From: a virus
Virus genome (UHGV): UHGV-0171102
DNA: 11,480 nt
Strand: one strand, 5' to 3'
The position numbers and the translations under genes were made by a program. Under the pieces are notes generated by a model. That model did no database searches and had not been told where the DNA came from. It saw only the letters and a list, made by a program, of their open reading frames with translations. Below, piece after piece: positions 1 to 11,480 of this stretch. Each line of letters opens with the position of its first letter. The stretch's first letter is position 1.

Positions 1-1
1 G

Positions 2-427
2 TTACAGGCTGCATTTCCTGCAAGCGTTTCGACCATAAGGGAGCAGAACAAACTTAATGAATTCCGTAAGCAATGGATGCTTGCGTTTCTGGAGAATGGG
101 ATCACTACAATGGAACAGGTTAACGCTGGTATGCGCCACGCCCGCGCCAGTGAGTCTCCGTTCTGGCCGTCGCCAGGGCAATTCATCAAGTGGTGTAAAG
201 ACAGCAAGATGGTTCTTGGCGTCACCATTGACGATGTGATGGCGGAGTTTCACCGGTACAGCAAGGAAAAAAGTTTATATCCTGGTGGTCCCGAAAGATT
301 CCCGTGGCGGCATCCGGTTATGTACTGGGTCGTATGTGATACCCGCCGTGCAATGTATCAGCGCCAGCTTAGCGAGATTGAGGTTGTGAATGACGCGCGG
401 AGGCTGCTCGTTGATTGGGCGAAATAG
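2..427 (+). CDS. P: Replication protein P-like (helicase-loader family), 5'-partial, ending at an in-frame TAG at 425-427
   Basis: Frame 2 is open from the window start. Translation ...FPASVSTIREQNKLNEFRKQWMLAFLENGITTMEQVNAGMRHARASESPFWPSPGQFIKWCKD... closely parallels the lambda P segment as I recall it (FPASLANRDQNEVNEIRRQWVLAFRENGITTMEQVNAGMRVARRQNRPFLPSPGQFVAWCRE). Confidence 0.8.
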   Translation, partial: LQAAFPASVSTIREQNKLNEFRKQWMLAFLENGITTMEQVNAGMRHARASESPFWPSPGQFIKWCKDSKMVLGVTIDDVMAEFHRYSKEKSLYPGGPERFPWRHPVMYWVVCDTRRAMYQRQLSEIEVVNDARRLLVDWAK

Positions 428-643
428 GTGGCTTCCGGACAGCAGATACCCGATCCGGTGATCAGCATACAGGCAAAGCCAGAACCCATGAGTACGCCTC
501 CGGACACAGGGAGAGACGTTTACCACCCGCCAGGGCGAAGTTTCGGGTGCATGCCTAACGCCGCCACCCTGGGGGGAATAACACCGGCGCAGTGGCTGAT
601 GGAGGAATACAGGCGGGGAAAGGCGGCAGGATTTATCAAGTAA
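428..643 (+). CDS. In-frame continuation of the P-like frame after the TAG (likely C-terminal tail of P, or remnant); ends TAA 641-643
   Basis: Same frame as 2..427 and begins at the codon directly after TAG. No Shine-Dalgarno precedes GTG 428. Contains QQIPDPV, resembling the lambda P tail (EAIPEPV) as I recall it. Confidence 0.4.
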   Translation: MASGQQIPDPVISIQAKPEPMSTPPDTGRDVYHPPGRSFGCMPNAATLGGITPAQWLMEEYRRGKAAGFIK

Positions 644-648
644 TACCA

Positions 649-668
649 GCGCGATAGCGCATTTTTTT
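649..668 (+). terminator. Candidate weak intrinsic terminator after the P-like frame
   Basis: GCGC-GATA-GCGC hairpin (649-660) followed by a T7 run (662-668), a few nt after TAA 641-643. The stem is only 4 bp. Confidence 0.3.
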
Positions 669-676
669 ACGTCTCG

Positions 677-760
677 GTAATTACCTTGGAGGTAATAAAA
701 TATTCTAAAATCTATTGATTTCGTGTCTTATGTGGTTTTTAATTACCTAAGGGGTAAATC
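677..760 (+). promoter_or_regulatory. Candidate promoter/operator region upstream of the DUF1064 gene
   Basis: AT-rich intergenic region. TAATTACCT occurs twice (678-686 and 742-750), the first within the perfect palindrome GGTAATTACC (677-686). Possible -35 TTGATT (715-720) and -10 TTTAAT (738-743) with 17 bp spacing. SD AAGGGG at 749-754. Confidence 0.25.
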
Positions 761-1108
761 ATGAGAAAACAGATGCAGGCTCTTGGTCGACTCAAAACAG
801 GCCAGATGAACAAAACAGAATCTGCGTATTGCCAGCACCTTGAGCTGCGTAAACGTGCAGGAGAAATCGTCTGGTATCGATTTGAGGGTATCAAGCTGCG
901 GTTAGCTGACAACACGTTCTATACGCCAGATTTTGCTGTGATGCTCGCCACCGGCGAGATGGAACTGCACGAAGTGAAAGGGGGATTCTGGACCGATGAC
1001 GCCAGAGTGAAAACCAAAGTAGCCGCAGATCAGTATCCGTTCCGAATCATCGGGGTAACGGTTAAACCAAAGAAAGCAGGTGGCGGCTGGAACATCGAAG
1101 AGTTCTGA
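761..1108 (+). CDS. DUF1064-like phage protein with a PD-(D/E)xK nuclease-like motif
   Basis: ATG with SD AAGGGG 6 nt upstream; 115 aa. Motif YTPDFAV...ELHEVKG fits a PD...ExK nuclease signature. Position is typical of the nin region. Confidence 0.85.
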   Translation: MRKQMQALGRLKTGQMNKTESAYCQHLELRKRAGEIVWYRFEGIKLRLADNTFYTPDFAVMLATGEMELHEVKGGFWTDDARVKTKVAADQYPFRIIGVTVKPKKAGGGWNIEEF

Positions 1109-1169
1109 ATCGACGATCTTTTTAGTTATCAATGTAATCAATAAGTTATGTGGATAAGCGAGGGTAAAG

Positions 1170-1673
1170 ATGGAAAGTAATATCAAAGGGTTAGTTGCCG
1201 CCGGGCATGAGATGGCTTCGGAACTGAAAGCAGAATGTGGTGCCGTTGATATGCGCAGTGTGGCAAAGCTGATCAGCGATTTGGCAACGCAACTGGAAGT
1301 GCAACTGGTGCGTGCTAATGCGCTGGCGGCGGAGAATGCGGGGCTGAAGTCTGCACACCCTCAACCATTCGGACCTGAGATGATGAAGGCTCTTGATGCG
1401 TATGAGAAGCATCAGGATGAAGTGCCGGAGACTGGGATGCTTGATGCATTTTTCATCTTGCGCGACAGCATCCGTGTTGAAACCCCAGCCACCGACGCTT
1501 TTCTGGCTGAAGTACGGGCGCAGGGCGTGGAGATGCTGGCAAAAAATCATCAAAGTATCGTCAATGCACTTAAGGGGGATTCTTTATTTTCTGATGGTGA
1601 ATACCGGCATGCAATTATCGCTTCCGCAGCAACATCTTTCGCCGCAGAGCTTCGCAAAGGAGGCAACCAGTGA
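1170..1673 (+). CDS. Hypothetical phage protein (167 aa, predicted helical)
   Basis: ATG preceded by GAGGG. Long ORF in the same orientation as its neighbours; its stop overlaps the next start (GTGA at 1670-1673). Confidence 0.75.
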   Translation: MESNIKGLVAAGHEMASELKAECGAVDMRSVAKLISDLATQLEVQLVRANALAAENAGLKSAHPQPFGPEMMKALDAYEKHQDEVPETGMLDAFFILRDSIRVETPATDAFLAEVRAQGVEMLAKNHQSIVNALKGDSLFSDGEYRHAIIASAATSFAAELRKGGNQ

Positions 1674-1894
1674 GCGGAAAAAGAATGACTAACAGAGAGC
1701 TTGTCGATGCCGCGATTAAGCTTGCTGGTGATTTTTATTCAATGATGGGGTACACGCATCGCCCAGGCTTCAAATATTGGGCGTCTCCTCACCCGCAAGA
1801 GCAACTGGTATTTCAAATGGCCTGCCGTGCTTTTGAGGTTATTCGCGGTTCTGATGTGATGGACGCCGTTGCCGACTTGGAGGATGAAGAGTGA
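1670..1894 (+). CDS. Hypothetical small protein (74 aa, acidic C-terminus)
   Basis: GTG start with a strong SD AAGGAGG (1657-1663) 6 nt upstream; alternative ATG at 1685. Translationally coupled to both neighbours (GTGA overlaps). Confidence 0.7.
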   Translation: MSGKRMTNRELVDAAIKLAGDFYSMMGYTHRPGFKYWASPHPQEQLVFQMACRAFEVIRGSDVMDAVADLEDEE

Positions 1895-2625
1895 GCGAAA
1901 TTAATTATCAGGCACTGCGTGAGGCGGCGGAGAAGGCAACGTGGGGAGACTGGGACTCATATAAACCACACCGTGGCGCACGTGGTTATGAGGTCCGACT
2001 AAGTAGTCAGGCCATTGCGCAACACGTTCTGAAAAACAACGCTGAATTTATTGCTGCCTTTAATCCAAAGATTGCTTTGGCACTACTGGATGAACGGGAA
2101 AGGAACCAGCAATACATCAAATCCCGCGACCAGGAGAACGAGGAAATTGCGCTAACGGTAGGGAAGCTGCGCGTTGAGCTGGAAGCAGAAGAGAAAACAT
2201 CAGCAGCTAGACTTGAGGCGCTCGACCGCACCCACAAAATGTTCCAACGGGAACAATGCAGGGCAGAGGCCGCAGAGAAGCGCATTGCTGAACTGGAGAA
2301 AAGCGAAGAGCAACTCATTAATGAGCGTGACCATGCTGAGTCTGCTTTAGCTGATATGTATTTTGCAGCAACCGGGGATAGGCCTGAGTGGAGTAACTGG
2401 TTCGGTTTTTCAGATGCAGTAGATGCCGTAGTTGACAGAATTGCTGATTTAGAAGCTAAACAGCCATCGCCAGTAGTACCTGAAGGACTGATTAAAGCGG
2501 TGCGTTTTTATGAGCAGGTAAAACGTGAGAACCCGCCAGTCGAAACAGGAGCATGGAAAGACGCTGTTGACTGGGTGCTCAAAGAGGCTTGCCAGGCTGT
2601 AAACATTGGCATCAAAGGAGAGTGA
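1891..2625 (+). CDS. ead/Ea22-like coiled-coil protein (244 aa)
   Basis: GTG start with SD GGAGGA (1879-1884) 6 nt upstream. N-terminus ...YQALREAAEKATWGDWD... resembles ead/Ea22-like prophage proteins as I recall them. The central region is E/K/R-rich and heptad-like. Confidence 0.7.
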   Translation: MSEINYQALREAAEKATWGDWDSYKPHRGARGYEVRLSSQAIAQHVLKNNAEFIAAFNPKIALALLDERERNQQYIKSRDQENEEIALTVGKLRVELEAEEKTSAARLEALDRTHKMFQREQCRAEAAEKRIAELEKSEEQLINERDHAESALADMYFAATGDRPEWSNWFGFSDAVDAVVDRIADLEAKQPSPVVPEGLIKAVRFYEQVKRENPPVETGAWKDAVDWVLKEACQAVNIGIKGE

Positions 2626-2626
2626 G

Positions 2627-2932
2627 ATGATTCACTATCACGGTGGGCCTATTACTCCTGATACGTGCGCCATGAGAGCATGGAAAGGGCGACATGCGTT
2701 TATCAGTTTTGCGCATTCAGGCCAGATCAATCTCGCGGCTGAATACTGTCAGTCGTTCGCGCTGGACAACGGTGCATTCACCGCCTGGAAAGCAGCTGGC
2801 AAAAACAAAATCGACTGGAGCGATTACTACGAGTTTGTTGCTCGCTGGAAGAATCACCCAGGATTCGATTTTGCCATTATCCCTGATGTTATTGATGGCG
2901 GAGAGGAAGAAAATGATGCGCTTCTGAATTAG
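2627..2932 (+). CDS. tRNA-guanine transglycosylase-like (DpdA-family) protein, N-terminal segment, ending at an in-frame TAG at 2930-2932
   Basis: ATG 2627 with SD AAGGAG (2615-2620). Motifs HGGPITPD and LDNGAF resemble the TGT family G-x-V-x-TP and L-x-D-S-G-G-F substrate-binding motifs. The frame continues after TAG. Confidence 0.65.
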   Translation: MIHYHGGPITPDTCAMRAWKGRHAFISFAHSGQINLAAEYCQSFALDNGAFTAWKAAGKNKIDWSDYYEFVARWKNHPGFDFAIIPDVIDGGEEENDALLN

Positions 2933-3382
2933 TGGCCTCACGGAAAACTAGCTGGCGTTCCAGTGTGGCACATGAATGAAAGTGACGAGCGATTTATTCA
3001 TTTGTGCAATGAGTTTCCGCGAGTGGCTATCGGTAGTTGTGGCGACTATGACGTAAAGCGCCCAACTCTTGCGGTAGCCAGAATGAAAGACCTGATTCGT
3101 CACATTGTTGATGAGTATGGTCAGCCGGTTGCGAAACTACATGGATTGCGCATGTTAAATCCGCAGATATTCACAAAATTACCCTTAGCCAGCGCAGATA
3201 GTACGAACGTCGCTCGAAACATCGGTATTGATAAAGCCTGGTCTGGGGCTTATGCACCTGCAAGTAAAGAGACACGAGCAGCATTAATGGTAGAACGGAT
3301 TGAGGCACACAATAGCCCTGGTTCTCTTGCGTATTGTGAACAACGCGACCGCTTTGAAATGCAATTGCAACTAGCAGTTTAA
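2933..3382 (+). CDS. In-frame continuation (C-terminal segment) of the TGT/DpdA-like gene after the TAG; ends TAA
   Basis: Same frame as 2627..2932 with no intervening stop other than TAG. No SD before the internal GTG 2963 or ATG 2972, so independent initiation is unlikely. Confidence 0.55.
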   Translation, partial: WPHGKLAGVPVWHMNESDERFIHLCNEFPRVAIGSCGDYDVKRPTLAVARMKDLIRHIVDEYGQPVAKLHGLRMLNPQIFTKLPLASADSTNVARNIGIDKAWSGAYAPASKETRAALMVERIEAHNSPGSLAYCEQRDRFEMQLQLAV

Positions 3383-3392
3383 GGACTAACAA

Positions 3393-4175
3393 ATGACCAC
3401 TATTACCAAAGAACGTATTGAATTGTTCATTAAAAATCCGCTTGAAAACGGGCTTACTCGTGGCGAACAAATGGAACTGGCACGAATTGCACTGGCATCA
3501 CTGGAACGCGAACTGATTCGCCACGAGCATGCCAAATGGTCTGACTCCACATTTGGCTGCGTTGGCCCCATTGGTCCACTGAAACACCTCTCAAAAGAGG
3601 CTCTGGAAGCCGCAGCCGAACCAGACGATCTCAGCGAGTGGGCTGATATGCATTTCCTGTTGTGGGATGCACAGCGCCGTGCTGGCATCAGCGATGCTGA
3701 AATTACCGCTGCTATGGAAGATAAATTGAAGATCAACATGGAGCGCCAGTGGCCTGAACCAAAAGATGGTGAGCCTCGCTTGCACATTAAAGAACCCGGC
3801 AACTCTCCGGTAATTCCGGATGGTTTATCCACGGTATGCGCTGAGGCTTATCAGGTTGTAGGAGTTATGGCAGATGCGCTTGGTGTATTCGGTGATGCAG
3901 CAGTACAGAAAGTTCTGGATAACCTGTCACAGCAAAAACTTGTTCACAGAGATGTGCTGCCGTTCTCGCTTCCGGTGACTCCGGATGGTTGGATAAGCTG
4001 TAGTGAGCGAATGCCCGCTCAAGATGATTGGATTTTAATTTATTCAAAGCACGGCGAGTATATGGCAGGACAGGTACAAGGGGAATACGTGGAGTTGAGC
4101 GACGGCACTTTATCGTGGTTAGGGAACGCCTTGTACTGGATGCCTCTACCGGAACCGCCGCAGGAGGTGAAGTGA
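3393..4175 (+). CDS. Phage protein with N-terminal MazG-like nucleotide pyrophosphohydrolase-like region (DUF550-like) and C-terminal DUF551-like domain
   Basis: ATG with SD AAGGA 7 nt upstream; 260 aa. Helical segment LSKEALEAAAEPDDLSEWADMHFLLWD...AMEDKLKINMERQW fits the MazG/HisE-like acidic-helix pattern. C-terminal ...DGWISCSERMPAQDDWILIY...WMPLPEPP is typical of DUF551. Confidence 0.8.
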   Translation: MTTITKERIELFIKNPLENGLTRGEQMELARIALASLERELIRHEHAKWSDSTFGCVGPIGPLKHLSKEALEAAAEPDDLSEWADMHFLLWDAQRRAGISDAEITAAMEDKLKINMERQWPEPKDGEPRLHIKEPGNSPVIPDGLSTVCAEAYQVVGVMADALGVFGDAAVQKVLDNLSQQKLVHRDVLPFSLPVTPDGWISCSERMPAQDDWILIYSKHGEYMAGQVQGEYVELSDGTLSWLGNALYWMPLPEPPQEVK

Positions 4176-4297
4176 TGAACAAGTGCAACGCTCTGCTTTA
4201 TGCCATGGTGATTGGTTTCGGCCTGGCTGCTGGTATCCGGGTTTATATTACCTGGGAGTCATTAATCAATCTGGCGTGGAGTGCGATTCGTGGCTAA
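4175..4297 (+). CDS. Candidate small hydrophobic (single-TM) peptide, 40 aa
   Basis: ATG 4175 overlaps the stop of the upstream gene (GTGATGA). Translation MNKCNALLYAMVIGFGLAAGIRVYITWESLINLAWSAIRG is a hydrophobic helix. The longer track ORF 4028..4297 overlaps the upstream gene out of frame. Confidence 0.35.
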   Translation: MNKCNALLYAMVIGFGLAAGIRVYITWESLINLAWSAIRG

Positions 4298-4628
4298 ATC
4301 CCCCGCAGAACGCAAAGCCGCGCAGCGCGCTCGGCAGTCCGCCGCCGGTGAGCGCAAAATTGAACTGGTGCTGGATAAGCAGGAGCAGGAAATGCTGGAG
4401 CGTAACTGTGCCACGCGTCGCCCCGGGCGTGCGCCTTACGAATTTGGTGAGTATATAGCGTTACTGACCCGCCAGGATGATGCACGCGTGCGCGGGCGTA
4501 TAAAATCGATCAGCAGAAAACGTTGCGGTAAGTGCGGCGAGAGAGTTCCAGTTAATTCATGCCCGTGTAATGGTGACTCGCAATGCTGGGTGACCAAAGG
4601 CTGGCATGAAACGAAATTAATAGTGTGA
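4281..4628 (+). CDS. Hypothetical protein with basic N-terminus and Cys-rich C-terminus (possible zinc ribbon)
   Basis: ORF of 115 aa. Start uncertain: GTG 4281 or GTG 4290, the latter with GGAG 8 nt upstream. C-terminal CGKCG...CPCNG cluster. Stop TGA lies inside the 12-bp palindrome. Confidence 0.55.
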   Translation: MRFVAKSPAERKAAQRARQSAAGERKIELVLDKQEQEMLERNCATRRPGRAPYEFGEYIALLTRQDDARVRGRIKSISRKRCGKCGERVPVNSCPCNGDSQCWVTKGWHETKLIV

Positions 4629-4648
4629 CATGTCACGAAGGTGTTATG
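4624..4648. repeat. Copy 1 of a palindromic repeat: TGTGACATGTCACG + GAA + GTGTTAT
   Basis: Perfect 12-bp palindrome GTGACATGTCAC at 4625-4636. The same 14-mer and following GTGTTAT recur at 7075-7095. Confidence 0.6.
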
Positions 4649-4858
4649 CCAAAAATACGCTACGACCTTGAAGATATGAGAGATAACTCAGCAAATTTTC
4701 CGAAAGAGGTTAAATTTCTCATGCATAAGTATGGTTGCGCCAGGAGGGATATAGTTATCGACAGTCAGCACCCTTGCGGCGAGGATGTAATTTTCATTCG
4801 CGGTAAATGGGAAGGGTATCTTGACGAGAGTTTTTACGATGAATTTGATGGACTTTGA
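4625..4858 (+). CDS. Hypothetical small protein (about 70-77 aa)
   Basis: ORF immediately upstream of terS. Start is either GTG 4625 or ATG 4646 (MPKIRYDLEDMRDN...). Contains AGA and tandem AGG AGG codons. Confidence 0.5.
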   Translation: MTCHEGVMPKIRYDLEDMRDNSANFPKEVKFLMHKYGCARRDIVIDSQHPCGEDVIFIRGKWEGYLDESFYDEFDGL

Positions 4859-4893
4859 ATACTGCCGCCAACTATGGCGGCTTTATTTTGCAT

Positions 4894-4925
4894 GGTACTA
4901 TTACCACAACGGTAACTATTACCAC
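4894..4925 (+). repeat. Tandem direct repeat GGTA(A)CTATTACCAC x2 directly upstream of the terS start
   Basis: ACTATTACCAC at 4897-4907 and 4915-4925 (period 18 bp), followed by GGTGG and ATGATG. Confidence 0.5.
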
Positions 4926-4932
4926 GGTGGTT

Positions 4933-5529
4933 ATGATGCCTGCTGAACCTAAAACCTATAAACGCAAATCAACGCAATTTAAGCCACTAACAGCAATGCA
5001 GGAGGCTTATTGCCAGTCATACATCAAAACGCCTGAAAACCAGACTCAGGCAGCGATTAACGCAGGATTCTCCCCAAATACAGCGGCAGTTAAAGCCAGT
5101 GTCATGATGCGCGATGAACGCATTCAAAAACGGATTGCCGAGTTGATGGAGGAGCGCAACAAACGAATGCGCGTCAGTGCTGATTACGTTCTCATGCGCC
5201 TGGTGGAGATCGACCAGATGGACGTGATCGACATCCTCAACGACGATGGGAGCCTTAAGCCAATCCGCGAGTGGCCGAAAATCTGGCGCACTACGCTTAG
5301 TGGCTTTGATCTGTCATCGACCATCATGAACATGAACGAGGATTCGATAGAGACAATCCTCAAAAAAATTAAATGGCCTGACAAGGTGAAGAACCTCGAA
5401 CTGATTGGTAAGCACGTCGACGTCAACGCATTCAAAGAACGCCTGGATGTTAATGTGAATGTGACAATTGCTGATCGCATAGCGGCAGCCAGGAAGAGAC
5501 TGAAAGAACGTCAGGATGGCAATCAGTGA
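4933..5529 (+). CDS. Terminase small subunit
   Basis: Protein ...INAGFSPNTAAVKASVMMRDERIQKRI... fits the small-terminase family pattern (AGYSxxxA...). Sits immediately upstream of, and overlapping, the large terminase gene. Start ambiguous (ATG 4933 or 4936; the open frame extends to TTG 4855). Confidence 0.8.
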   Translation: MMPAEPKTYKRKSTQFKPLTAMQEAYCQSYIKTPENQTQAAINAGFSPNTAAVKASVMMRDERIQKRIAELMEERNKRMRVSADYVLMRLVEIDQMDVIDILNDDGSLKPIREWPKIWRTTLSGFDLSSTIMNMNEDSIETILKKIKWPDKVKNLELIGKHVDVNAFKERLDVNVNVTIADRIAAARKRLKERQDGNQ

Positions 5530-7001
5530 CAGATACAGCGTTATCTCCTGAAGAGCAGTTAATCGAGGATATTGCAGGGTTCACTCACGATCCGCTTGGC
5601 TATGCCCTCTATGCGTTCCCGTGGGGGGAAGAGGGTACTGAACTGGCACATGCCACCGGTCCACGTCAGTGGCAGGCCGATGCGTTCCGAGAGATACGTG
5701 ATCACCTGCAGAATCCAGAGACGCGATATCAGCCGCTTATGCTGGCACGTGCTTCTGGTCACGGTATTGGTAAATCCGCATTCATCTCAATGCTGATCAA
5801 CTGGGGCATGTCCACTTGCGAGGATTGTAAGGTCGTGGTGACCGCCAACACCGACAACCAGCTACGAACGAAGACCTGGCCGGAAATTATCAAGTGGTCA
5901 AACCTTGCTATCACGAAAGACTGGTTTACCTGTACCGCTACCGCGATGTACAGCAATGACCCTGGGCACGACAAGCGGTGGCGAGCTGACGCAATCCCCT
6001 GGTCTGAGCACAACACTGAGGCATTCGCCGGACTACACAACGAGCGTAAACGCATCATCGTGGTATTTGATGAAGCGTCGAACATTGCGGATCTGGTGTG
6101 GGAAGTTGCCGAGGGTGCGCTAACGGACGAAGACACTGAGATTATCTGGGTGGCTTTCGGAAACCCTACACGTAACACCGGGCGTTTCCGTGAATGTTTC
6201 CGCAAATACAAACACCGCTGGAAAACTGCGCAGATTGACAGCAGGACGGTGGAAGGCACCAACAAACAGCAGTTGCAGAAATGGGTTGATGACTACGGGG
6301 AAGATAGCGACTTCGTTAAAATCCGTGTGCGTGGCATATTCCCTGATGCATCTGAATTGCAGTTTATCCCTACCGGTCTTACTGACGAGGCAATGAAACG
6401 GGTGGTAACTGCTGCGCAGGTGGCACATGCTCCGGTGATAATCGGCGTTGACCCGGCATACTCCGGCGTTGATGACGCTGTGATATACCTGCGGCAGGGG
6501 CTACACAGTAAGGTGCTGTGGACTGGCAACAAGACTACCGACGATCTGATTATGGCGAAGCGTATCGCTGACTTTGAAGACCAGTATCAGGCTGACGCGG
6601 TGTTCATCGACTTCGGTTACGGAACCGGTTTGAAGTCAATCGGTGACGGCTGGGGTCGTACATGGCAACTTGTTCCGTTCGGTGGCGCGTCTACTGACCA
6701 GCAGATGCTCAACAAGCGTGGGGAGATGTTCAACTCATGCAAGACATGGCTGAGGCTGGGCGGCATGCTTGATGACCAGGAAACAGCGGACGACCTGTCG
6801 GCGGCAGAGTACAAAGTTCGAGTGGACGGTAAAATCGTTATCGAACCGAAGGAAGATATCAAGGAGCGGCTTGGGCGTTCTCCTGGTAAAGGCGATGCGC
6901 TACTGCTGACGTTTGCGTTCCCGGTGTCAAAGCGCCTGCGAATTCCCGGGCAGCAGAACCAGCAAGGCAAGGCCATTACAGATTACGATCCCTATGCTTA
7001 A
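5526..7001 (+). CDS. Terminase large subunit
   Basis: 491 aa. Walker A ASGHGIGKS and Walker B IIVVFDEAS in the N-terminal half; C-terminal nuclease-like IGVDPAYSG. GTG start overlaps the terS stop (GTGA). Confidence 0.9.
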   Translation: MTDTALSPEEQLIEDIAGFTHDPLGYALYAFPWGEEGTELAHATGPRQWQADAFREIRDHLQNPETRYQPLMLARASGHGIGKSAFISMLINWGMSTCEDCKVVVTANTDNQLRTKTWPEIIKWSNLAITKDWFTCTATAMYSNDPGHDKRWRADAIPWSEHNTEAFAGLHNERKRIIVVFDEASNIADLVWEVAEGALTDEDTEIIWVAFGNPTRNTGRFRECFRKYKHRWKTAQIDSRTVEGTNKQQLQKWVDDYGEDSDFVKIRVRGIFPDASELQFIPTGLTDEAMKRVVTAAQVAHAPVIIGVDPAYSGVDDAVIYLRQGLHSKVLWTGNKTTDDLIMAKRIADFEDQYQADAVFIDFGYGTGLKSIGDGWGRTWQLVPFGGASTDQQMLNKRGEMFNSCKTWLRLGGMLDDQETADDLSAAEYKVRVDGKIVIEPKEDIKERLGRSPGKGDALLLTFAFPVSKRLRIPGQQNQQGKAITDYDPYA

Positions 7002-7027
7002 TCCGTTAGCGGGGATAATGACGGAGA

Positions 7028-7077
7028 TATCCTCTGGTGAGGATAAAACAAAGCCAGCTCATCGGCTGGCTGTTTGT
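7028..7077. terminator. Candidate bidirectional terminator between convergent terL (+) and the 123-aa ORF (-)
   Basis: Hairpin TATCCTC-TGGT-GAGGATA (7028-7045) and hairpin AGCCAGC-TCATCG-GCTGGCT (7052-7071). The second is flanked by TTTGTTTT on the minus strand and TGTTTGT on the plus strand. Confidence 0.4.
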
Positions 7078-7096
7078 GACATGTCACGGTGTTATT
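7075..7096. repeat. Copy 2 of the palindromic repeat: TGTGACATGTCACG + GTGTTAT
   Basis: GTGACATGTCAC at 7076-7087, identical to 4625-4636, with shared flanks. Abuts the stop codon (7092-7094) of the minus-strand ORF. Confidence 0.6.
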
Positions 7097-7463
7097 GCTC
7101 GCTTAACTTCTGCTTCAGCAAGTAACCTTCAAGCATCCAGATTTTGTTTACAGCATTCTGCCGGGCAATCTTCCGACCAATTTCCGCATCAAAGTTTTCT
7201 GGGCTTGCACAGGCGCTCTCTCCGGTGACGGTGAAGCCGTTGCGCAGCACCAGAACGCAGAACGTCAGCAGAGAAAGTGATTCGTTCGGCTGGTAGTTTA
7301 CCTCTCCGCCAGTATGTTTCGCTTTTATGGCCACGCCAAAGACACCATCTTCTGCTGTGAAATATGCCTCCTGAGCAATAATGCTCTCGATATGGTCTGG
7401 CGTAACGCGCGGCGCGGCTAAACCTTTAGCCTGAATTTCAGATTCAATGTCTTTGTCACTCAT
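7092..7463 (-). CDS. Hypothetical protein (123 aa), reverse-oriented moron; possibly N4 Gp49 / Sf6 gp66-like family (tentative)
   Basis: Minus-strand ORF with SD AAGGTGA about 9 nt upstream of ATG 7463. Convergent with terL and followed by a terminator hairpin. The family assignment is from memory and weak. Confidence 0.7.
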   Translation of the reverse strand: MSDKDIESEIQAKGLAAPRVTPDHIESIIAQEAYFTAEDGVFGVAIKAKHTGGEVNYQPNESLSLLTFCVLVLRNGFTVTGESACASPENFDAEIGRKIARQNAVNKIWMLEGYLLKQKLSEQ

Positions 7464-7479
7464 AGTCTATTCTCACCTT

Positions 7480-7504
7480 AAAAAAATGCCCGGCGAACCG
7501 GGCG
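7480..7504 (-). terminator. Intrinsic terminator-like hairpin (UUCG tetraloop) plus U7, directly abutting the RBS of the 123-aa ORF
   Basis: Minus-strand RNA GCCCGG-UUCG-CCGGGC followed by AUUUUUUU, then AAGGUGAGAAUAGACU-AUG. Confidence 0.5.
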
Positions 7505-7581
7505 AACTGGAGGCAATGAGTTATGCCTTCCGTGGCTGTACTGGTTTACAGCATGAAGTCATCGCAATGGCGTCCTGCTGT

Positions 7582-7624
7582 AAAAATGGCGGTGATAGTC
7601 CTTCAAGGGAAACCATCACCGCCA
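7582..7624 (-). terminator. Candidate tRNA terminator
   Basis: Perfect 10-bp inverted repeat TGGCGGTGAT / ATCACCGCCA (7587-7596 / 7615-7624) with an 18-nt loop, followed on the minus strand by UUUUU. Lies about 45 nt downstream of the tRNA 3' end. Confidence 0.45.
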
Positions 7625-7666
7625 AGCCCCTGGAACTTCTGGCATCACGGTCCTTAGGCGTGATTC

Positions 7667-7743
7667 TGGCGTGGCATGCAGGATTCGAACCTGCGACCAA
7701 CCGCTTAGAAGGCGGTTGCTCTGTCCAACTGAGCTAATGCCAC
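7667..7743 (-). tRNA. tRNA-Arg (anticodon UCU), phage-encoded, CCA encoded
   Basis: Reverse complement GTGGCAT-TA-GCTC-AGTTGGACA-GAGC-A-ACCGC-CTTCTAA-GCGGT-TGGTC-GCAGG-TTCGAAT-CCTGC-ATGCCAC-GCCA. Acceptor (7 bp), anticodon and T stems are perfect, with a 4-bp D stem and GTTCGAATC T-loop. Anticodon TCT. Confidence 0.9.
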
Positions 7744-8170
7744 AACGCTGAGAGCACTTAGCCTGTTAAGGCACCACACTTTGTCGCGGCTCCATAAATG
7801 CTCTCATCGTTGCACCCTCGTCTCTTCCGAGGTGTCACACCGAATCGCCGGGATGGTGAATCCCCGTGCGCGGAATAAAACCGCTCGACTTGCACATTCC
7901 GGCTACCTGGTTCGTTTGCCATAGCAAGGGAGGGTGCCCCTTAAACGTATCCAGACCGCTATCGGCGCATGTGCCATACACCGTACTGCTCAAAATAAAA
8001 GCTCACCCCACCTGTTCAATTTAACGACAAGCCAGTCAGGTTAATAACCGGAATGAACTCTTTGCTTACCTGAAAGGTAATAATTAGTGCGTTAAATGTC
8101 AAGTATCTACGATAAATAAATCACATGTGGTTAAATTGGTAATAATTTAATTGCGTACGGAGTCATTGAT

Positions 8171-8377
8171 ATGTGCATGGGTAGCTCACCATCAGTGCCT
8201 GCAACACCAGAAGTTCAGGCAGCACCACAGGAGCAGGATGCCGCCGTTGTTGATGCCCGCGACGAAGAAACTCGTCGCCGTCGCGCTGCTGCTGGTCGTA
8301 GTTCTACGCTGCTTACCGGTTCTCAGGGCGACACATCAACCGCTAATACCAGCGGTAAAACGCTGCTTGGTCAGTAA
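8171..8377 (+). CDS. Small low-complexity protein (68 aa) upstream of portal
   Basis: ATG with GGAG 8 nt upstream. Its translation-initiation region CGGAGTCATTGA-N-ATG is identical to that of the portal gene. Protein is rich in A/S/T/Q/R, likely disordered. Confidence 0.5.
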   Translation: MCMGSSPSVPATPEVQAAPQEQDAAVVDARDEETRRRRAAAGRSSTLLTGSQGDTSTANTSGKTLLGQ

Positions 8378-8391
8378 CCGGAGTCATTGAA

Positions 8392-10071
8392 ATGGCGGAA
8401 ACAACTAAAGAGCGATTGAACAAACAGTTCGCACAACTTGAAAGCGAGCGTCAGTCGTTCGAGCCGCACTGGCGCGAGTTGAGTGATTACATCAACCCGC
8501 GTGGTTCCCGCTTTCTGACTTCTGAGGTCAACCGTAACGATCGACGCAATACACGCATTATTGATTCGACCGGGACTATGGCGGCGCGCACTCTCGCCAG
8601 CGGCATGATGTCAGGCATCACAAGCCCCGCGCGTCCGTGGTTTCGCCTGGCTACGCCAGATCCTGAAATGATGGATTATGGCCCTGTTAAGTTGTGGCTT
8701 GAGGCGGTGCAGAACCGCATGAACGATATATTCAATAAGTCGAATCTCTACCAGTCTCTTCCGCAGTTATACGGAAGCCTCGGCACATACAGCACTGGTG
8801 CAATGGCGGTGCTGGAGGATGACGAGGACATCATTCGCACAATGCCATTCCCGATAGGCAGTTACTACCTGGCTAACTCACCTCGTGGCAGTGTGGACAC
8901 CTGTTTTCGCAAGTTCTCTATGACTGTTCGTCAGCTTGTTCAGGAGTTCGGGCTAAATAACGTCAGCGAATCCGTAAAAAGCATGTGGGAAAGCGGCACC
9001 TACGAGAAGTGGATTGAAGTGATGCATTCGGTTTACCCGAACATTGACCGCGATACATCGAAGCTGGATAGCAAGAACAAGCCATTCAAATCGGTTTATT
9101 ACGAGGTTGGTGGCGATAACGACAAGTTGTTGCGTGAGTCCGGATTCGATGAGTTTCCAATTATGGCTCCGCGCTGGGAAGTTAACGGCGAAGATGTTTA
9201 TGGATCATCATGCCCGGGTATGCTGGCGCTTGGACCTGTTAAGGCATTGCAGCTTCTCCAGAAGCGCAAGTCGCAGTTGATTGATAAAGCCACCAATCCG
9301 CCGATGGTTGCTCCGACTTCCCTCAAGAATCAGCGCGCCTCCCTTCTTCCTGGCGACATCACGTATATCGATCAGATTACTGGTCAGGATGGTTTCAGGC
9401 CTGCTTATCTGGTTAACCCCAGTACAGCAGATCTGGTAGCAGACATTCAGGACACCCGCCAAATCATTAACAGCGCCTACTTTGTCGATCTGTTCATGAT
9501 GTTGCAGAACATCAATACCCGCTCGATGCCTGTTGAAGCGGTGATCGAAATGAAAGAAGAAAAACTTCTGATGTTGGGGCCGGTTCTGGAGCGTCTGAAC
9601 GACGAATGTCTTAATCCTCTCATTGACCGCGCTTTCTCGATGATGGTGCGTAAAAACATGCTGCCGCCCCCGCCTGACGCGATGGAAGGTATGCCCCTGA
9701 AGGTCGAATACATTTCCGTCATGGCTCAGGCGCAGAAGTCTATCGGCCTGTCCAGTCTGGCGTCCACGGTTAACTTCATTGGTCAACTTGCGCAAGCGAA
9801 ACCAGAAGCTCTCGACAAACTCAACGTTGATCAGGCAATCGATGCATTCGCTGATATGTCCGGAGTGTCTCCAACCGTCATTGTTCCGCAGGAACAGGTT
9901 GAGCAGGCTCGCCAGCAACGGGCACAGCAGCAACAGCAGCAACAAATGATGGCGATGGGGATGGCGGCGGCACAGGGTGCCAAGACGCTAAGCGAAGCTA
10001 AAACTTCGGATCCGAGTGTTTTGTCAGCTATGGCGAATGCAGTTAGTGGTCAGGGTGGGCAATCACAATGA
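8392..10071 (+). CDS. Portal (head-to-tail connector) protein, T7-like family
   Basis: 559 aa. The Q-rich C-terminal tail ...QQQQQQQMMAMGMAAAQGAK... resembles the T7 gp8 C-terminus as I recall it. Sits between the terminase and the scaffold/capsid genes. Confidence 0.85.
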   Translation: MAETTKERLNKQFAQLESERQSFEPHWRELSDYINPRGSRFLTSEVNRNDRRNTRIIDSTGTMAARTLASGMMSGITSPARPWFRLATPDPEMMDYGPVKLWLEAVQNRMNDIFNKSNLYQSLPQLYGSLGTYSTGAMAVLEDDEDIIRTMPFPIGSYYLANSPRGSVDTCFRKFSMTVRQLVQEFGLNNVSESVKSMWESGTYEKWIEVMHSVYPNIDRDTSKLDSKNKPFKSVYYEVGGDNDKLLRESGFDEFPIMAPRWEVNGEDVYGSSCPGMLALGPVKALQLLQKRKSQLIDKATNPPMVAPTSLKNQRASLLPGDITYIDQITGQDGFRPAYLVNPSTADLVADIQDTRQIINSAYFVDLFMMLQNINTRSMPVEAVIEMKEEKLLMLGPVLERLNDECLNPLIDRAFSMMVRKNMLPPPPDAMEGMPLKVEYISVMAQAQKSIGLSSLASTVNFIGQLAQAKPEALDKLNVDQAIDAFADMSGVSPTVIVPQEQVEQARQQRAQQQQQQQMMAMGMAAAQGAKTLSEAKTSDPSVLSAMANAVSGQGGQSQ

Positions 10072-10364
10072 CAGATTACGAAGACGATCAACTGAAAGAA
10101 GAAAACGCCCGTAAGCAACGTGACATGGCACAGCGTGAAATTGATGACATTCGCTTTGTCATGAGCAGTGAACAGGGGCGTCGCGTTGTCTGGTCGGTGC
10201 TGGAGAAAGGCCGTGTGTTTTCTGCTATCTCACCGATGGACGCTATGGCTATGGCATTTAATGAGGGGCAACGCAATCTGGCGCTGGAACTGTTTCAGCG
10301 CGTTATGGCGCATTGCCCTGAACAGTATTTGAAGATGGCCAAAGAGGCCAGTGAACAGGAGTGA
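10068..10364 (+). CDS. Hypothetical head-module protein (98 aa)
   Basis: ATG overlaps the portal stop (ATGA); the scaffold-like gene starts 2 nt after its own stop. Confidence 0.7.
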   Translation: MTDYEDDQLKEENARKQRDMAQREIDDIRFVMSSEQGRRVVWSVLEKGRVFSAISPMDAMAMAFNEGQRNLALELFQRVMAHCPEQYLKMAKEASEQE

Positions 10365-10366
10365 TC

Positions 10367-11062
10367 ATGAATTTATTTGAGCGTTTGCTGTATCGCCGTC
10401 TTTGCAATGAGCAACCAGTCGATGGTGGAGCAGCTCCGGCTGCGTCAGAACCGTCAGCGCCTGCAGGTGATAACCCTGCTCCAGTTGGTGATCCATCACA
10501 ATCGGAAGGTGATAAGCCACAACCTGTTGCTGATGGCGATAAACCTGCTGATGACAAAAAGCCTGAAAACGATAAGCAGGATGAAAAAAAGGACGGCGAT
10601 AAACCAGAGGGTGCGCCTGAGAAGTACGAGTTTCAGGCTGCCGAAGGCGTAGAGCTGGATACAGAAGCGTTGAAGGAATTCGAGCCGGTGGCGCGAGAAC
10701 TAAACCTGACCAACGAGCAAGCGCAAAAGCTGGTTGATGCTTATCCGAAGATTCTGGCAGGTGTTCAGCAGCGCCAGGCAGAAGCCTGGCAGAAAACAAC
10801 CGAGCAGTGGGCTGCGGATGTAAAAGCTGACAAAGAAATCGGTGGCGACAAGTTGATTTCTAACCTTAGCGCCGCACAGCGTGCGCTTGACCAGTTCGGG
10901 ACACCTGAGCTCAAAGAATATCTGAACACCACCGGGCTGGGTAATCACCCTGATCTGGTCAAAACGTTCGTGAAAATCGGAAAGGCGATGTCTGAAGATG
11001 GCATGGTCACCGGTGGTAATGAAGGCCAGCGTAGTGCGGCCGAAGTGCTCTATGGCAAATAA
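10367..11062 (+). CDS. Acidic scaffold-like protein
   Basis: ATG with SD AGGAG 5 nt upstream. Highly acidic, P/A/D/K-rich low-complexity N-terminal half and helical C-terminal half, located between portal and capsid. Confidence 0.65.
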   Translation: MNLFERLLYRRLCNEQPVDGGAAPAASEPSAPAGDNPAPVGDPSQSEGDKPQPVADGDKPADDKKPENDKQDEKKDGDKPEGAPEKYEFQAAEGVELDTEALKEFEPVARELNLTNEQAQKLVDAYPKILAGVQQRQAEAWQKTTEQWAADVKADKEIGGDKLISNLSAAQRALDQFGTPELKEYLNTTGLGNHPDLVKTFVKIGKAMSEDGMVTGGNEGQRSAAEVLYGK

Positions 11063-11076
11063 GAGAGGAAATGACA

Positions 11077-11480
11077 ATGGCTGTTAAAGGCTTAACTGCG
11101 CTAACGCTGGCTGACTGGGGTAAGCGCGTCGATCCAAACGGGAAAGTCGATAAGATTATCGAGCTTCTCGGTCAAACTAACCCGATCCTTCAGGATATGC
11201 CTTTTGTCGAAGGGAACCTTCCTACCGGACACCGAACCACCATTCGTTCTGGTTTACCTTCAGCTACCTGGCGTTTGCTGAACTATGGCGTACAGCCAAG
11301 CAAATCAACCACAGTGCAGGTAACCGATTCCGTTGGCATGCTGGAAACCTATGCGGAAGTCGATAAGTCACTGGCTGATCTGAACGGCAATACCGCCGAA
11401 TTCCGCCTTTCTGAAGACCGCGCATTTATTGAAGCGATGAATCAGCAGATGGCGCAGACGCTGTTTTATGGTGATTCCAG
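11077..11480 (+). CDS. Major capsid protein, 5' portion (3'-partial at window end)
   Basis: Own translation from ATG 11077 (SD GAGG 8 nt upstream) gives MAVKGLTALTLADWGKRVDPNGK... with no stop to the window end. Position after the scaffold gene, plus a distant pattern similarity to T7 gp10. Confidence 0.65.
   Translation, partial: MAVKGLTALTLADWGKRVDPNGKVDKIIELLGQTNPILQDMPFVEGNLPTGHRTTIRSGLPSATWRLLNYGVQPSKSTTVQVTDSVGMLETYAEVDKSLADLNGNTAEFRLSEDRAFIEAMNQQMAQTLFYGDS

Follow-up and report, generated by a model that had tools for sequence, protein, structure and literature searches.

The window (the whole stretch of DNA analysed here, 11,480 bp) is an entire metagenome contig, ena:ERZ1304544:NODE_5703_length_11480_cov_2.625888. 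At its left end lies a lambda P-type replication gene in two pieces, separated by an amber codon that is real in the deposited sequence (Table 1). The frame is open from base 2 to the TAG at 425-427 and, as the sequence-only reading had described, continues in the same frame at GTG 428 for 71 codons, to the TAA at 641-643. The 5' end of the contig cuts the gene: the window begins 134 nt inside P, and P codons 1-45 are therefore absent. Just 3' of P is a possible terminator. One is annotated at the matching position in phiV10; a consensus terminator scan made no call there, the stem having fewer than five pairs.

Table 1. Coordinates of the features discussed, in window numbering.
Feature	Position	Strand	Remark
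Lambda-P-family replicative helicase loader, upstream piece	2..424	+	Codons 46-186 of a 258-codon gene
In-frame TAG	425..427	+	AAG (Lys) in every relative examined
C-terminal 71 codons of the same P gene, with TAA	428..643	+	Not an independent gene
Putative rho-independent terminator 3' of P	649..668	+	GCGC-GATA-GCGC, then a T run
Private patch of six substitutions	387..425	+	Bases found in none of the 19 relatives compared
DpdA-like / queuine-tRNA-ribosyltransferase-like gene (PHROG 887)	2606-3382	+	Split by an in-frame TAG at 2930-2932

The P gene and its relatives

The upstream piece alone matches the Pfam family Phage_lambda_P (PF06992) with 157.6 bits (cut-off 26; E=3e-46). Joined across the stop, the two pieces score 169.4 bits and the match reaches the last profile position. 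A match to PHROG 109 ('P-like helicase loader') was also found, with E=3e-62, and P passes the family threshold of PF06992 and PHROG 109. Its frame is interrupted in the window by the TAG at 425-427 and is intact in every relative examined. That a P-like frame, recognised earlier by near-identity to the lambda P core motif, ends at this codon is confirmed by the reading frame and the PF06992 match, and the ENGITTMEQVNAGMR core is indeed nearly identical in lambda P and the window P. Lambda P itself (PDB 6BBM, 8V9T; PF06992; PHROG 109) shares about 43% identity with the window P in alignment (phmmer E=7.5e-43 to PDB 8v9t, query residues 11-201). The domain order is the same and the window tail aligns with the region of domain IV, but this tail is longer (71 vs about 45 residues) and diverged, and its contacts with DnaB are putative. 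A further difference from lambda is that the partner initiator in relatives of the window is DnaT-like rather than lambda O; where relatives have the same P DNA, the start of P lies within the end of a DnaT-like gene.

The closest known proteins are those of phiV10-like (Uetakevirus) phages, e.g., WP_000843279.1 (258 aa), QTH80034.1 of ZX5 (vB_EcoP_ZX5) and AAZ95932.2 of phiV10. Identity of the P region to P genes in this phage group, and in over 500 prophages of E. coli, is 95-98%, and the gene order (DnaT-like gene, P, DUF1064, ea22 region, terminase, portal) is shared. Compared with the allele of WP_000843279.1, the DNA of window 1-643 is identical save for six bases. The differences from phiV10-like P are thus a six-base patch, which includes the change of AAG to TAG, and the first 134 nt of the gene, which lie beyond the contig end.

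The P genes of these relatives are mosaic. Alleles of 258 and 261 aa have unrelated 5' parts (window 1-124; 1609-1733 of relative L011) and are near-identical from about window position 113 onward. The window combines a P of the 258-aa type with a downstream region identical to that of L011, whose own P is of the 261-aa type; L011 matches window 627-11480 exactly. The junction between P and the downstream region, queried as a 70-mer, was found in no viral contig and is present in the metagenome contigs L025 and L028.

Continuity of the P gene across the stop

Several lines of evidence indicate that the frame on both sides of the TAG belongs to one gene. On the PHROG 109 profile the upstream piece covers positions 45-186 and the 71-aa tail covers positions 189-236 of 236, so that the two are collinear, and the tail alone matches the C-terminal end of the profile (E=9e-8). 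Lambda P can be aligned straight through the stop, its '...ARINRGEAIPEPV' facing '...DWAK*VASGQQIPDPV'. The QQIPDPV segment that had been noticed as resembling the lambda P tail falls here, 'GQQIPDPV' aligning with 'GEAIPEPV' of lambda P. A single P CDS of 777-786 nt is annotated in E. coli UTME-8, phage ZX5, phiV10 and TL-2011b; the 777-nt alleles start 134 nt before the window and end at the position matching window 643. Among relatives, the distinct codon variants of the tail are synonymous in 11 cases and non-synonymous in one, which indicates that the tail is translated in the P frame as part of P.

There is little to suggest a start at GTG 428. Predicted pairing of the preceding bases with the 16S anti-Shine-Dalgarno is -2.8 kcal/mol, and the window-wide background mean is -2.66. 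This agrees with the earlier observation that no Shine-Dalgarno precedes this codon. Ten of 11 other starts tested in the window score from -5.8 to -11.6 kcal/mol, the exception being TTG 4855 of the small terminase ORF (-2.4 kcal/mol). We therefore rejected independent translation of the tail, although weak reinitiation at the adjacent TAG-GTG may yield an untethered tail. Exact look-up returned no called gene on record anywhere for the 71-aa ORF, and was likewise empty for a 116-aa ATG-started ORF.

A short P followed by a separate 71-aa gene (e.g., ren-like) would account for the GTG-started ORF directly 3' of the stop. The position of the tail at the end of the PHROG 109 profile, its alignment with the lambda P tail, the single CDS in relatives, the lack of a Shine-Dalgarno and the absence of the 71-aa ORF from called genes all speak against this, and it has next to no chance of being correct. 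Homologues ending at the TAG position were sought and none was found; those of full length, with 258-261 aa, and lambda P itself continue through this position, where they have the sense codon AAG (Lys). Judged by these homologues, the two-gene reading is refuted, and the view of the sequence-only reading that this is one interrupted P gene stands.

The six-base patch

The stop does not occur alone. It is the last of six substitutions (A387T, A391T, C392G, C400G, A411T and A425T) within 39 bp, with the codon effects E>V, K>N, H>D, R=R, D>V and K>stop. Five of the six are non-synonymous or nonsense, as against natural variation in the P tail that is synonymous 11:1. All six swap a base for its complement, A for T four times and C for G twice. 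These sites are the only bases of the 11,480-bp window unseen in all 19 relatives compared, and each of the remaining 11,474 is matched by at least one relative with intact genes. Six random sites would lie this close together with a probability of about 3e-12, and would all be complement transversions with a probability of about 1.4e-3. So dense a group of private changes, in an 11.5-kb contig whose other bases are all matched, indicates a single local event.

The same P allele without the patch is widespread. Six relatives (L001, L009, L010, L012-14) are identical to window 1-643 save for the six sites. Over the upstream piece, these six and also L025 and L028 carry the window allele save for five patch sites, the sixth being the TAG itself. 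The latter two are independent metagenome contigs with the same mosaic as the window, retrieved through look-up of a DpdA fragment, a rare product encoded nearby; this look-up also identified the window as the contig NODE_5703. L025 (ERZ28654762, a 140-kb metagenome scaffold) equals the window over 7,932 bp and L028 (ERZ19219875, a metagenome contig, cov 7.9) over 4,925 bp, in both cases save for exactly the six patch sites, and both encode an intact P of 258 aa. All fetched relatives that cover the site have AAG. The same holds, by identity ceiling, for the 532 E. coli complete-genome records covering a 71-bp stretch around it, where the best identity is 65/71.

Searches for the variant elsewhere were negative. 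A 30-mer containing the TAG had no exact match in viral contigs or JGI metagenome contigs, and neither half of the patch had one in viral contigs. A scan of genome contigs returned the AAG form only, on a 422-bp, 0.84x contaminant contig of a Mesorhizobium assembly. This contig (L019, NZ_JAFCGY010000167.1, from Mesorhizobium caraganae) has 94.5% identity to P and the downstream spacer and is almost certainly contamination of that assembly. The reconstructed 186-aa truncated P is absent, by exact look-up, from about 15 billion proteins, and the 141-aa piece that the TAG terminates is recorded for ERZ1304544 NODE_5703 only, compared with at least 1000 contigs for the intact P allele. The variant is thus private to one low-coverage assembly, and sequence that is otherwise identical occurs elsewhere.

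Known sources of clustered change were also considered. Template switching at a quasi-palindrome was rejected, as no inverted repeat involves positions 380-430, as was origin in a hairpin, since predicted folding is no more stable with the patch than in the wild type and in neither case exceeds that of shuffled sequences. Gene conversion from an ectopic donor was discarded because the window contains no second copy of either patch half with up to three mismatches, and an outside donor because none of the complete E. coli genomes, viral contigs and JGI metagenome contigs searched has the variants. A diversity-generating retroelement does not fit either, since two of the changes are at C rather than A and no template repeat is present in the window.

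Possible origins of the amber codon

The window contains a second in-frame TAG, in the DpdA-like gene, for which no Pfam match was obtained. BTP1, SPN3UB, AH07 and Stx1a_EH2115 have GAG or GAA at this site, and a single protein of 251 aa where the gene is annotated. GAG is also kept in L006, L008 and L020. The TAG is common to L011/L024, L025, L026 and L028, which represent two different phage backgrounds and at least four independent assemblies (L011, L025, L026, L028). Unlike the P stop, it is a nonsense allele that is real and in circulation, in an accessory gene.

Two further observations concern the DpdA-like gene. Several draft-genome contigs (L029-L032; locus end 5304 / 4556) end one base after its codon 101 and so include only the first base of what is the TAG codon in the window; the TAG itself is not visible in them. 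This suggests an assembly-graph branch point at a module boundary common to several prophages. In addition, OR850331.1 (1,719 bp, 'Staphylococcus phage SA 1298 Kay') matches this enterobacterial gene at 81% identity, the same as Salmonella phages, and is probably mislabelled or a contaminant.

The presence of two amber codons on one contig, the second shared by several assemblies, and the GTG that adjoins the P stop might suggest that the P TAG is functional, with full-length P made in an amber-suppressing host or by programmed readthrough. The P stop, however, is conserved in no relative, all of which have AAG, and four further amino-acid changes arrived with it. A tRNA-Arg(UCU) is the sole tRNA of the window, which has no cognate suppressor tRNA, and a phage-encoded suppressor tRNA was rejected on this ground. 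TAG is the only stop codon within one base change of either AAG or GAG, and for this reason two ambers are no argument for suppression. A functional TAG in P is thus very improbable. There is scarcely any chance that both ambers (425-427 and 2930-2932) are real and read through in a naturally suppressing E. coli, with replication dependent on host suppression. The earlier suggestion of a phage dependent on amber suppression finds no support. The tRNA-Arg, at window 7667-7743 on the - strand, reads the rare codon AGA and has annotated counterparts in related prophages.

Laboratory amber mutants of lambda P, e.g., Pam3 (CAG>TAG), are grown on supE hosts (PMC4926192). They resemble the window in having a TAG inside P; dependence of growth on suppression would apply here only if the TAG is real. 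They differ in that they are single selected point mutations in cultured phage, whereas here the TAG accompanies five other changes in 39 bp and comes from an uncultured, low-coverage metagenome contig.

We consider a read error the probable origin of the patch, including its in-frame TAG, which would then not exist in the phage. The contig name is in the style of SPAdes, where 'cov' denotes k-mer coverage. With a mean of 2.6, a Poisson model leaves about 20% of covered positions, roughly one in five, with one read each, so that one poor read can set the consensus. On this reading the gene is an ordinary lambda-P-type helicase loader, intact in its phage or prophage, which would be an E. coli one of the phiV10/epsilon15-like group (Uetakevirus). 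The TAG and the five other changes would be base-calling errors in one low-quality read, the sole support for the stretch. In Illumina two-colour chemistry A is read as red and green, C as red, T as green and G as dark (PMC5374548). Loss of the red channel on a + strand read would give A>T and C>G and no other miscalls, and spurious red on a - strand read would give the same result in + strand terms. The changes are observed to be clustered and to comprise A>T and C>G only, which fits this coding if the platform of the run is assumed to be two-colour; a literature search for the accession ERZ1304544 returned nothing. That read error was the cause, and that the platform was two-colour, we infer. 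Because the same phage elsewhere has an intact P gene, the TAG is most likely a sequencing error.

Some points stand against a read error. No other error is visible in the contig, assemblers usually correct or trim isolated low-quality tails, and the ERZ1304544 contig is indexed in '2 samples', although these are perhaps not independent. In addition, a genuine multi-base mutation would give the same consensus. Such a mutation, very recent, made in one event such as error-prone repair synthesis and present in a minority population of the phage or prophage, is possible but unlikely. It would truncate P at codon 186 of 258 and remove the element that grips DnaB. The deposited sequence does carry the patch, and the same phage lineage already has one real, shared nonsense mutation in an accessory gene. 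However, no other assembly has the six changes as a set, coverage is about 2.6x, and the spectrum of A>T and C>G only, which fits a single-channel miscall, is the signature of no E. coli mutational process known to us. Nor does a hairpin, inverted repeat or ectopic template explain a templated event.

The position of the stop is compatible with loss of function. [quoted passage not shown] By alignment, the window tail would correspond to this lasso, and a P truncated before it is plausibly null. Toxicity of P to the host is documented (PMC4926192), and if the patch is genuine the host could tolerate or favour the defect because P-driven replication and P itself are toxic. The suggestion that the window derives from a defective or decaying prophage is at odds with the 11,474 other bases, which match relatives with intact genes, and with the restriction of the stop to a contig of about 2.6x. 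As the stop is private and lies in a 39-bp patch of complement-type changes that resembles read error, the decaying-prophage and amber-suppression readings are both unsupported.

These results call for caution with metagenome contigs of low coverage. In-frame stops should be checked against near-identical sequences and for read support, and such checks belong before any reading in terms of recoding, suppressor dependence or pseudogenes. A series of changes that are all A>T or C>G is helpful as a warning of a miscall in a single channel, and the diagnostic pattern here is a private cluster of such changes in a low-coverage contig.

P of this window is a known gene of a known phage group. Most likely the phage itself does not have the interruption, which is at most a private knock-out. 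If the stop is real, P would probably be dead as a helicase loader, and this would be one more prophage defective in replication, an outcome that would be unremarkable.
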